DNA of 64,000 nucleotides from Candidatus Poribacteria bacterium (GCA_965221425.1 OZ244889.1:251012-315011); one strand, 5' to 3'; shown: positions 5,859-45,470, numbered from the stretch's first letter. A program made the numbers and translations. The notes: generated from the sequence alone by a model not told the origin.

Positions 5859-6405
5859 TAACCTAAGTTGCCACCTATTTGCGAATGCTCTTGTAGGAGG
5901 GATTTCTAACCCCGATTTATAACAGAAAACGTAAGAATCAGCGGAAATGTCTTGTTTTTTTTTAGTAAAATCCGTAATTATTTGCACACCATGGTAGGTT
6001 CGGTTTCTAACCGCTCCATAGGCGTCAATTTAGCGGACCTTCACCCTGGTAGATGCGGTTTCCAACCGCATCGGGCTTATATGAGTTGCGGACAACAAGC
6101 GGTAAAGTTCTTTAGGGGAGCACTTTGTAAGCGCTATATATCGGCGTTGAAAACCCGCTGAATACCATACGTGTATTCAGCGTTAATTCACTCTCCCAAG
6201 AGCATATTGGGATAATACGGAGCGGTTGGAAACCGCTCCTACCGTGTAGTAGATACTCACAAATGCAGATTCATTTCTTAAATTGACGCCTATGGTTCGG
6301 TTTCTAACCGAACCTACCGGGCATGTGTAAACATATTTTTGGATTTCACTATAATAAAAAGCAGTGTCTGCTATCTCGAAATCTTGTAAGTAGCAACTTG
6401 AGTTA
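5859..6405. mobile_element. Three-level nested element: family B (5859-6405) > family A-type (5963-6351) > family C (6017-6294), with REP hairpins
   Basis: TAACCTAAGTTGCCAC/GTAGCAACTTGAGTTA; TAGTAAAATCC/GGATTTCACTA; perfect CCATAGGCGTCAATTTA/TAAATTGACGCCTATGG inverted repeats. Confidence 0.8.
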
Positions 6406-25127: not shown

Positions 25128-25734
25128 TAGTGACATTTAGAATTGAAAGGAACATTTTGTAGCACAACCTGTATGAAGTTTAAGTTATTAATTCGGTAAT
25201 TTGGCGAGGTTAGGAAGAAATCAACGGTATGAATGCCATTTAGGCATTCCCCGCCTCGCCAGCAGAGATGTACACCTGCTGCTGGCGAGGTTTCCTAACC
25301 TCGCTAAATTCCCCAATTTATTTATTAATCTTCATTTAGGTTGTGCAGAAACGGAACACCTTATGTGTCAATTTAAGGGATAAACCCGCTGTAGTAGTGT
25401 CTTTAGTCCCGTGAATCAACGCCAAATACGCGTTTGGTATTTGTCGGGGACGATATGTGTATCCCAACGACATATTTTCTACATATCGTCCCTACGGGAC
25501 TAAAGAACTGGGGTATCGTTTTTTATAAACATATCGTCCGTACGGGACTAAAGAGGACTAATCTCTATAATCATGCGTATTTAGAGGTGTTCACAATAAC
25601 ACAGATTTTTTCTTAAATTGACACCTATGGGTTGTGCAGAAACGGAACACAACCTAACAGGTTATGCTACAGTGTCTACGGTAGTTTCGGTTTTCTGACT
25701 GATCCTAATGTCCAATTAATTCTAAAGTTTACTA
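25128..25734. mobile_element. Composite nest: family A host containing D (25173-25335, with 36-bp E at 25217-25252) and C (25360-25629, with E-like insert 25413-25445)
   Basis: Matching terminal inverted repeats; 21-bp direct repeat GGTTGTGCAGAAACGGAACAC flanks C. Confidence 0.8.
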
Positions 25735-45041: not shown

Positions 45042-45470
45042 TAGTAAACCCATAATGCTTATATATTGTGGTAGGTGCGGTTTCCTAACCGCCCCGTGTC
45101 TGGATAAATGGTGCGGTTAGAAACCGCACCATAGGTGTCAATTTAAGGGGTAAATCTATTTGGCAGTGTCTTCAGTCCCGTAGGGACGATATGTTTATAG
45201 ATATGAAATGTATATATATCTTTAGTCCCGTAGGGACGATATGTGTATCCCAACGACATATTTTTTACATATCGTCCCTACGGGACTAAAGAGGCGTTGT
45301 TCAATGTTTTTCTATAAACATATCGTCCCTACGGGACTAAGATGTGGACAGTTCCAATCGTCATGCCTATTCAGAAGGGCTTTTAGAACAAGAAATATTT
45401 TCTTAAATTGACGCCTATGGTGCGGTTAGAAATCGCACCTACCAGGGTGTCCATATATTTTAGATTACGA
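45042..45470. mobile_element. A-type host with family C element (45130-45419) carrying GTCCCGTAGGGAC hairpin pairs
   Basis: CATAGGTGTCAATTTAAG/CTTAAATTGACGCCTATG flanked by 19-bp direct repeat GTGCGGTTAGAAA(C/T)CGCAC. Confidence 0.8.

Follow-up and report, generated by a model that had tools for sequence, protein, structure and literature searches.

A MITE family with 19-20 bp target-site duplications and its IS4-type parent element in Candidatus Poribacteria

Here we describe element C, a short repeated element present in three copies (A, B and C) in a 64,000-nucleotide stretch of DNA, hereafter the window (G000:C1:251012-315011), from the genome of a sponge-associated Candidatus Poribacteria bacterium (G000), a single 5,241,742-bp contig of 43.1% G+C. 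Each copy is a miniature inverted-repeat transposable element (MITE) lying between two direct repeats of 19 or 21 bp, which at copies B and C are repetitive extragenic palindrome (REP) hairpins. The parts of the three copies are listed here in window coordinates, with no strand assigned.

25339-25359: left duplication arm of copy A, GGTTGTGCAGAAACGGAACAC, 21 bp, identical to 25630-25650
25360-25629: element C copy A, the copy flagged in the preliminary description of the window, a 270-bp non-coding MITE recognised by end-motif match
25360-25377: left end of copy A, variant CTTATGTGTCAATTTAAG, 2 mismatches to the 18-nt end motif
25612-25629: right end of copy A, CTTAAATTGACACCTATG, 18-nt end motif
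25630-25650: right duplication arm of copy A, GGTTGTGCAGAAACGGAACAC, exact over 21 bp
45111-45129: left duplication arm of copy B, GTGCGGTTAGAAACCGCAC, a 19-bp REP hairpin with an 8-bp stem
45130-45419: element C copy B, a 290-bp MITE whose ends match the consensus perfectly, recognised by end-motif match
45420-45438: right duplication arm of copy B, GTGCGGTTAGAAATCGCAC, 19 bp with 1 mismatch, followed by CTACC, the outer REP stem
5998-6016: left duplication arm of copy C, GTTCGGTTTCTAACCGCTC, a 19-bp REP hairpin with 2 mismatches, preceded by GGTAG
6017-6294: element C copy C, a 278-bp MITE of differing interior, recognised by end-motif match and interior comparison
6295-6313: right duplication arm of copy C, GTTCGGTTTCTAACCGAAC, 19 bp, followed by CTACC

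The flanking repeats are present where the preliminary description had placed them, and its remarks on their sequence hold as well: all three targets start with G and finish with C, and each is all or part of a stem-loop. The two 19-mer targets are complete hairpins with an 8-bp stem, while the 21-mer right arm of copy A needs the next four bases (25630-25654) to complete its hairpin, GGTTGTG-N11-CACAACC. This palindromic repeat is dispersed through the genome, where it has 27 matches if the flanks of C insertions are counted. The 18-nt end motif has 6 matches in the window at up to 3 mismatches, against 0.14 expected from shuffled sequence. The left-end variant of copy A, in which CTTATG replaces CATAGG, is recurrent. 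Copies A and B are about 80% identical over 190 bp, whereas copy C, already singled out for its different interior, has in common with them only the ends and one short stretch. An Rfam scan of copy A gave no significant match (best E 0.69).

Across the genome, the end motif (counted at up to 3 mismatches) matches at 141 right and 135 left ends, which form 89 pairs, defined as adjacent left and right ends less than 3 kb apart, and leave 98 ends unpaired. When these copies were tabulated, 49 of the 89 pairs proved to be abutted by 18-21 bp direct repeats that differ at two positions or fewer. Their lengths are 20 bp in 26 cases, 19 bp in 21, and 18 bp and 21 bp in one each; among the 29 exact repeats, 16 are of 20 bp, 12 of 19 bp and one of 21 bp. 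Copy A is the sole 21-bp case. Pairing left and right flanks at random yields 3.2 direct matches per 89, compared with the 49 observed. Inverted flanks, which would be a sign of a hairpin intermediate, were found in this genome at chance level (2 observed, 2.6 expected), and that idea was dropped. Element C is a non-autonomous MITE family carrying the 18-bp terminal inverted repeats of an insertion sequence (IS) of 1.45-1.49 kb: its members are short (no more than 800 bp in 86 of the 89 pairs), non-coding and numerous, share their terminal inverted repeats with the IS and are flanked by target duplications. Single-linkage comparison of the interiors placed 76 of the 86 MITEs in one mosaic cluster and gave no informative families.

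The flanking repeats are genuine target-site duplications made by a transposase, as had been proposed, because empty sites carry a single copy of the target. The orthologous empty site of the copy at 1400365, in non-REP DNA, has one target copy in the relatives G002 and G008, the G008 allele reading GCATCTGTTG-GGTAATTGGTTGAGAAACAC-ATAATCATC. Likewise, the empty site orthologous to the copy at 5057876, also in non-REP DNA, has a single target in G002, G013 and G012. For copy A there is a paralogous empty site within the same genome, at G000:C1:4694570, where one copy of the 21-mer stands between the same flanks as those of copy A (left aatcttcattta, right taacaggttatgctacagtgtct...). Two target copies already in place before insertion, the observation that would have spoken against the proposal, were found at none of these three sites.

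The genome has no intact transposase gene of the C type, only two remnants of one. The first (3435537-3436146) is held by a 750-bp element with C ends at 3435521-3436270, an internally deleted IS that keeps the first 170 transposase codons; the second, at 5071781-5072046, is a C-terminal piece. A protein search with the 170-codon fragment returned 32 loci from other genomes. Of these, 30 belong to Candidatus Poribacteria (metagenome-assembled genomes), and there the same 18-bp ends enclose elements of 1442-1487 bp. The transposase gene bounded by CATAGGYGTCAA ends, whose existence the preliminary description had anticipated, is therefore found as part of full-length IS in other Poribacteria genomes. 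The 1487-bp element L010:2847-4333 contains a single 447-amino-acid open reading frame between short terminal inverted repeats, and its similarity to copy A is confined to the 18-20 bp ends. Transposase matches occur in 13 of the 18 genomes of the genus that were searched, with about 40 intact copies in G001, while the genomes closest to G000 have transposase fragments only. All intact transposase genes having been lost, the roughly 90 or more C copies of G000 are currently stranded.

On the evidence of sequence profiles and a predicted structure, the parent is an IS4-family DDE element with a Tn5-like fold and ends of the IS231-subgroup type. The transposase (P0001) scores 207.2 bits on the NCBIfam IS4-family profile NF033592 (cut-off 115) and 73.4 bits on PF01609 (cut-off 23); on the IS1634 profile NF033559 it scores 27.4 bits, under the cut-off of 100. 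Residues D119, D191, E324, R320 and K331 are invariant in an alignment (A1) that includes Chloroflexota and Firmicutes relatives, and the DDE spacings of 72 and 133 in P0001 lie within the IS4 rule D(60-110)D(100-150)E. In the Y(2)R(3)E(6)K motif, R320, E324 and K331 are kept, and at the Y position the three poribacterial sequences have A, Herpetosiphon has L, and Chlorohelix and the four Firmicutes sequences have Y. An AlphaFold2 model (mean pLDDT, the predicted local distance difference test score, 77) was compared with known structures using Foldseek; the five best matches in the Protein Data Bank are all Tn5 transposase chains (E 5.7e-11 to 2.9e-9), led by 1muh_A (E 5.7e-11, template-modelling score 0.51), and TnsB (7pik) matches weakly (E 0.06). 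The end sequence CATAGGCGTCAATTTAAG agrees with CAT-------AA--TAA---, with CAT at 1-3, AA at 11-12 and TAA at 15-17; CAT-------AA--TAA is described as the end signature of the IS231 subgroup in the 2008 IS4 review (PMC2266710).

The nearest annotated relatives on plasmids are an IS4-family gene of Herpetosiphon aurantiacus plasmid pHAU01 (34% identity) and one of Candidatus Chlorohelix (33%), followed by IS231-like elements on plasmid records of the Bacillus cereus group at 25-28%. Bacillus is the largest group of plasmid-borne matches, with 700 of the 1736 matching records. Relatives number several hundred, 504 of 8000 scored candidates reaching E <= 1e-5. In a phylogenetic tree, the Firmicutes IS231-like clade stands apart (support 100) and the poribacterial clade has a support of 99. 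Two long branches, L148 and L223, are suspect, and the backbone, on which L219 also lies, is poorly resolved; we therefore claim neither a single long-duplication clade nor a branching place for L219.

The long duplication is a property of the full-length IS and its relatives as well as of the MITEs. Measured throughout from the conserved CAT...ATG ends, 19-20 bp duplications with at most one mismatch flank 16 of the 30 full-length loci at which both ends are present, and at L014, L022, L023, L025 and L026 they lie in non-repeat targets. We further examined 56 loci of sister lineages, with ends CATAGGTGTCAACTTAAG or CATAGGTGTCAATTTAAG, which are listed here by genome.

G001, 20 loci: 19 bp exact at 9 (6 in non-repeat DNA), 20 bp with one mismatch at 1, 19 bp with two mismatches at 1, none at 7, ends not found at 2
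G005, 10 loci: 18 bp exact at 6, 1-2 mismatches at 3, none at 1
G007, 10 loci: 17 bp exact at 5 (readable as 19 if the C and G that terminate the IS are assigned to the target), 18 bp exact at 1, none at 1, ends not found at 3
G003, 10 loci: 20 bp exact at 4, 19 bp exact at 3, none at 1, ends mis-called at 2
G002, 4 loci: 19 bp exact at 2, 19 bp with two mismatches at 1, none at 1
G006, 1 locus: none
G008, 1 locus: 20 bp

The plasmid relatives follow the same pattern: the Herpetosiphon pHAU01 element lies between exact 19-mers and the Chlorohelix element between exact 20-mers. More distant relatives, at 30-41% identity, were collected from metagenomes (78 loci analysed, 61 with ends, 47 with at least 21 nt of flank). 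Exact repeats were found at 7 of these 47 loci, five of 20 bp and one each of 21 bp and 11 bp. No direct repeat was found at 54 of the 61 loci with called ends, 14 of which have less than 21 nt of flank; we suspect that short-read contigs have joined the flanks of different copies of a multi-copy IS, and that some repeats are missing for this putative reason. The single 11-bp case is L219 (IS at 1103-2503 of its contig), which is 33% identical, has ends CATAGGCATTAAGCTAAG and is flanked by an exact duplication, AGGTGTGCCCT, centred on a GGGGCGAGG..CCTCGCCCC hairpin; one-turn and two-turn states are therefore both present among the relatives. At two other metagenome loci, L202 and L191, the IS lies between repeats of at least 64 bp that are 78-95% identical and inverted, not direct. 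These are either IS at the centre of a larger palindromic element or fold-back chimeras of short-read assembly.

Among six Firmicutes loci (L082-L087, on Bacillus and Clostridium plasmids), L082, L083 and L084 have ends flanking the transposase gene and show no direct repeat, and at the remaining three no pair of left and right ends was found around the gene. The 10-12 bp figure for IS231 therefore rests on Table 1 of PMC2266710. The left flanks of these IS231-like elements are conserved, with GGGGTAcCgCCA ahead of CATGCCCATCAAGCTAAG, and the right flank of L083 is the exact reverse complement of its left (GGGGTAGCACCA / TGGTGCTACCCC). In several of the six, the transposase gene is separated from the left end by passenger genes.

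Returning to G000, the 41 duplications with at most one mismatch comprise 20 REP hairpins and 21 non-REP sequences. In the 42 half-sites of the non-REP targets, G occupies position +1 in 39 cases and -1 in 21; further out, T stands at -3 in 28 and G at -4 in 29. The resulting consensus is two-fold symmetric, roughly GTnG|G...C|CnAC, where the bars mark the cuts. The host REP, GGTAG|GTGCGGTT-loop-AACCGCAC|CTACC, has 19 or 20 nt between the cuts and fits this consensus on both sides. Scanning the genome with a restrictive pattern gives 300 REP-like 19-20-mers (146 of 19 nt and 154 of 20 nt), preceded by GGTAG in 103 cases and followed by CTACC in 98. Although REPs make up about 0.1% of the genome, they account for about half of the C insertions. 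The suggestion that REP hairpins are copied as a by-product of transposition is borne out by the 68 of these 300 sequences that abut a C end (31 a left end, 37 a right end) and by six places where a 19-20 bp REP lies between two MITEs in tandem.

These repeats are genuine REPs in the sense of REP-associated tyrosine transposases (RAYTs). The sole Y1 (RAYT-type) transposase gene of the genome (PF01797, 63.5 bits) lies at 315405-315731, 394 bp past the window end, between two inverted REP copies, GTTCGGTTTGTAACCGAAC upstream at 315285 and its inverse GTTCGGTTACAAACCGAAC downstream at 315875; the nearer of these hairpins is 274 bp past the window end. The REP-RAYT unit (G000:C1:315235-315940, locus L147, 224-929 bp past the window) is itself bounded by degenerate C ends, CATAAGTGTCAATTTGAA at 315235 on the left and a right-end-like stretch, CTAAATTTGACACTTCTG, near 315920. 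These ends show no flanking duplication, and the unit may lie inside an old C element.

Taken together, we think it probable that element C is a set of MITEs mobilised by the IS4-type transposase, that a stagger of about two helical turns is set by the enzyme, that the enzyme prefers a symmetric G...C target, and that REPs are doubled as a by-product. By analogy with Tn5, we infer that a transposase dimer would bring both element ends together and attack the target with their 3'-OH groups, one on each strand. The two joints would be offset by 19-20 bp (17-21 bp across lineages) in a 5' stagger, and gap repair would then copy the DNA between them. The enzyme favours a two-fold symmetric target of about GTnG|G-N17-18-C|CnAC. 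The stagger would be set by the enzyme itself and not by the hairpin: the enzyme would act as a ruler accurate to about 1 bp, with the G/C preference selecting the exact phosphates within that play. REPs match the target on both halves and are therefore hot spots, with one REP doubled at each insertion. A spacing of about 10 bp places the two attacks on opposite sides of the helix, as argued in PMC2266710, and about 20 bp would give the same relation one turn further on.

Several observations weigh against this explanation. For the three window copies, no single-hairpin allele can be read in the closest relative, G014: its flanks are 94-97% identical, and the entire repeat-filled spacer is absent at all three loci, the two genes at the copy A locus being about 25 bp apart, so that no clean empty allele is available there. 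Moreover, 40 of the 89 pairs have no direct repeat or a poor one, which we attribute, putatively, to decay, recombination between copies and mis-paired ends in nested arrays. Between the shortest and the longest of the lineage lengths (17, 18, 19 and 20 bp) the helical phase shifts by as much as about 100 degrees; a rigid B-DNA ruler does not easily accommodate this, and the target could instead be deformed or unwound. The non-REP targets are weakly enriched in self-complementarity (59 pairs against 46.0 +/- 6.0 expected, P 0.023), and their mean minimum free energy (MFE) is -2.24 kcal/mol, against -1.37 for 2000 random 30-mers (P 0.042). Lastly, in 22 of the 25 REP targets that could be classed by eye, the duplication is as long as the REP (19 or 20), so that stem sequence or structure helps to select the cut.

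The last of these points also bear on a model of structure-dependent targeting, in which the 17-21 bp between the cuts are extruded, unwound or kinked, the amount looped out sets the length, and palindromes are favoured for the ease with which they are deformed or extruded. That duplication length follows REP length speaks for this model, and the weak self-complementarity excess (P about 0.02-0.04) points the same way. It is also favoured by the two sister IS lineages that prefer different palindromic repeats, each cut symmetrically, and by lineage lengths of 17-20 bp that track the inner segment of the favoured repeat. However, under a slightly wider REP rule that leaves 20 non-REP targets, 10 have a DNA MFE of -1.3 kcal/mol or weaker, as against a mean of -10.0 at REP sites, and these ten hairpin-poor targets still give 19-20 bp. 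The six non-repeat targets of the G001 lineage are all of 19 bp, and no duplication outside 17-21 bp was seen in the clade. The cuts, too, fall away from a cruciform base: in the usual REP, GGTAG|G..C|CTACC, they enter the stem 5 bp from its base, and in the sister-lineage target, GTAGGTCG|GGT..ACC|CGACCTAC, 8 bp from it. We therefore regard structure-dependent targeting as unlikely. Its particular form in the preliminary description, a transposase cutting at the base of extruded cruciforms, is probably wrong, given also that 21 of the 41 targets are non-REP and that full-length IS in non-repeat DNA show the same lengths.

A bolder version of the enzyme-set stagger is a tentative idea, conceivable rather than probable: that a Tn5-type clade re-spaced its strand-transfer sites by about one turn, that the resulting length is tunable over 17-20 bp and has co-evolved with the inner length of RAYT-borne REPs, and that the IS hunts and multiplies REPs. 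Each hit would then leave two intact REP cores, that is, two new targets. In this version the transpososome may also unwind or extrude the target DNA between the cuts. If it does, the enzyme would be the first known case of a DDE transposase that recognises a hairpin-forming repeat as a single unit.

Mobilisation of element C by another enzyme, either the RAYT Y1 transposase or an unrelated IS, with the ends shared with the IS4-type element by coincidence, is highly improbable. It would fit the lack of an intact IS4-type transposase of the clade in G000 and the one RAYT with flanking REPs just past the window end. Against it, the full-length IS with identical 18-bp ends gives the same 19-20 bp in related genomes, and the internally deleted 750-bp IS with C ends persists at 3435521-3436270. 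Y1 HUH enzymes are not known to make target duplications or to need terminal inverted repeats, which counts against the RAYT.

We give next to no credence to the idea that the repeats do not stem from insertion, element C lying between pre-existing REPs or the hairpins belonging to the element: REPs are abundant enough (300 REP-like 19-20-mers) and 38 of the 89 pairs have unrelated or diverged flanks, but the direct matches exceed random pairing (49 against 3.2), 21 of 41 clean duplications are non-REP and vary between sites, both kinds of empty site (orthologous and paralogous) are single-copy, and none of the 13 tandem 19-21 bp duplications in G000 is an element-free REP-REP tandem of the kind that an excision footprint would leave.

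Among known systems, IS231/MIC231 shares with element C the end signature, a single-ORF DDE transposase and non-autonomous derivatives that resemble the parent at their ends only. The IS231 target is GGG-N5-CCC, symmetric from G to C as in element C, and the Bacillus flanks examined here begin with GGG. In contrast, IS231 duplicates 10-12 bp, not the 19-20 bp of element C (17-21 bp across its clade). Members of the IS231 subgroup are close to one another, many pairs exceeding 50% identity, while the C-type transposases are only 25-28% identical to those of Bacillus and Clostridium and form a separate clade in the tree. The poribacterial proteins differ further in having A at the Y of the YREK motif and in missing a 16-residue Firmicutes segment. 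The hosts differ as well, being Poribacteria, Chloroflexota and soil metagenome organisms for the C-type IS and the Bacillus cereus group for IS231.

More broadly, Table 1 of the 2008 review (PMC2266710) gives 7-13 bp duplications across all seven IS4 subgroups, 10-12 bp for IS231, and the review rests a mechanistic argument on "one helix turn". By that measure the 19-20 bp of element C, and the 17-21 bp of its relatives, lie outside the family range, and the duplications are as unusually long as had first been supposed. Tn5/IS50, which provides the best fold match (1muh_A) and shares the DDE and R..E......K motifs, duplicates 9 bp (8-9 in the same table), about 10 bp less than element C, and its ends start with 5'-CT where those of element C start with 5'-CA. 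The duplication of Tn5 also has G/C pairs at its ends (PMC1525189). Where the 2008 review treats long repeats, they are given only for IS1549 and IS1634. The preliminary description had compared element C with IS1549, and both IS1549 and IS1634 are indeed IS4-related DDE elements with long direct repeats. The comparison nonetheless fails, because from one copy to the next their repeats range between 8 and 514 bp (PMC2266710) whereas those described here stay within about 1 bp per lineage.

Long duplications are also on record for a subgroup of the IS1202 family, 16-28 bp in length and used as a subgroup character (Harmer and Hall 2023, PMC10132070). These elements are unrelated to the C type: as described there, they have a transposase modelled on TnsB of Tn7, 5'-TGT ends and inverted repeats of 24-26 bp, and in its account of this subgroup that paper identifies no target. 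Element C ends are 5'-CAT...ATG-3' as against 5'-TGT...ACA-3', and the C-type fold is nearest to Tn5, so that element C lies outside the IS1202 definition. IS that target REPs have been reported as well, among them ISRm22 (of the IS4 family), ISPpu9/10 and ISPa11 (Tobes and Pareja 2006, PMC1525189). Like element C, they gather in REP palindromes at a fixed position. Unlike it, they are described there as splitting the REP and duplicating 0-6 bp, whereas element C duplicates the whole inner hairpin of 19-20 bp and leaves two intact REP cores.

No IS4-type element with a duplication of about 20 bp was found described in a search of full-text literature, ISfinder entries lying outside that search. 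What is new here is an IS4/IS231-type transposon clade, with its MITEs, that has a doubled target duplication. Duplication length is treated as a near-fixed family hallmark because it reflects the geometry of two active sites on the target, and lengths of 17-21 bp in 1-bp steps, found with the same fold and end signature, provide a natural series for the study of target measuring by Tn5-like enzymes, with relevance to engineered Tn5 tools. The findings also show a route by which an IS can amplify a host REP population. In addition, MITE finders set to duplications of 2-10 bp, the range expected in a MITE survey (PMC11602168), would miss or mis-bound such elements. Experiments are feasible, since Herpetosiphon aurantiacus DSM 785, one of whose plasmids carries a relative (the Haur_5171 element), is in culture.

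Two further small elements were observed in G000. A sister MITE family with ends CATAGGTGTAAAGTTAAG has about ten copies (e.g. 90826-91117, 962183-962599 and 1298354-1298757) carrying 18-20 bp duplications, some of them in the GGTTTCGC..CTCTACC|CGACCTAC repeat, which is the target favoured by the sister IS lineages of other genomes. The other element, with ends CATAAATCAACG...CGTTGATTTATG, is present at G000:C1:1484855-1485245 and 4391380-4391776; at both loci it lies inside the GGTTGTG..CACAACC repeat with TGTTCCGTTTCTGCACAACC (20 bp) on either side, and it looks like a second MITE family with a 20-bp duplication.

Within the window, the MITE interiors contain 25-nt modules, CTTTAGTCCCGTAGGGACGATATGT, of which copy B has four, two forward and two reverse. 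One of the four is split in copy A by a 34-bp insert, GAATCAACGCCAAATACGCGTTTGGTATTTGTCG, at 25413-25446, which breaks it at the tip of a small hairpin (GTCCCGT|..|GGGAC). The spacer of about 600 bp around copy A is made almost entirely of other repeats (25204-25305 and 25664-25710), including a 58-nt palindrome (ggcgaggttaggaag...cccgcctcgcc) and more REP-like hairpins.

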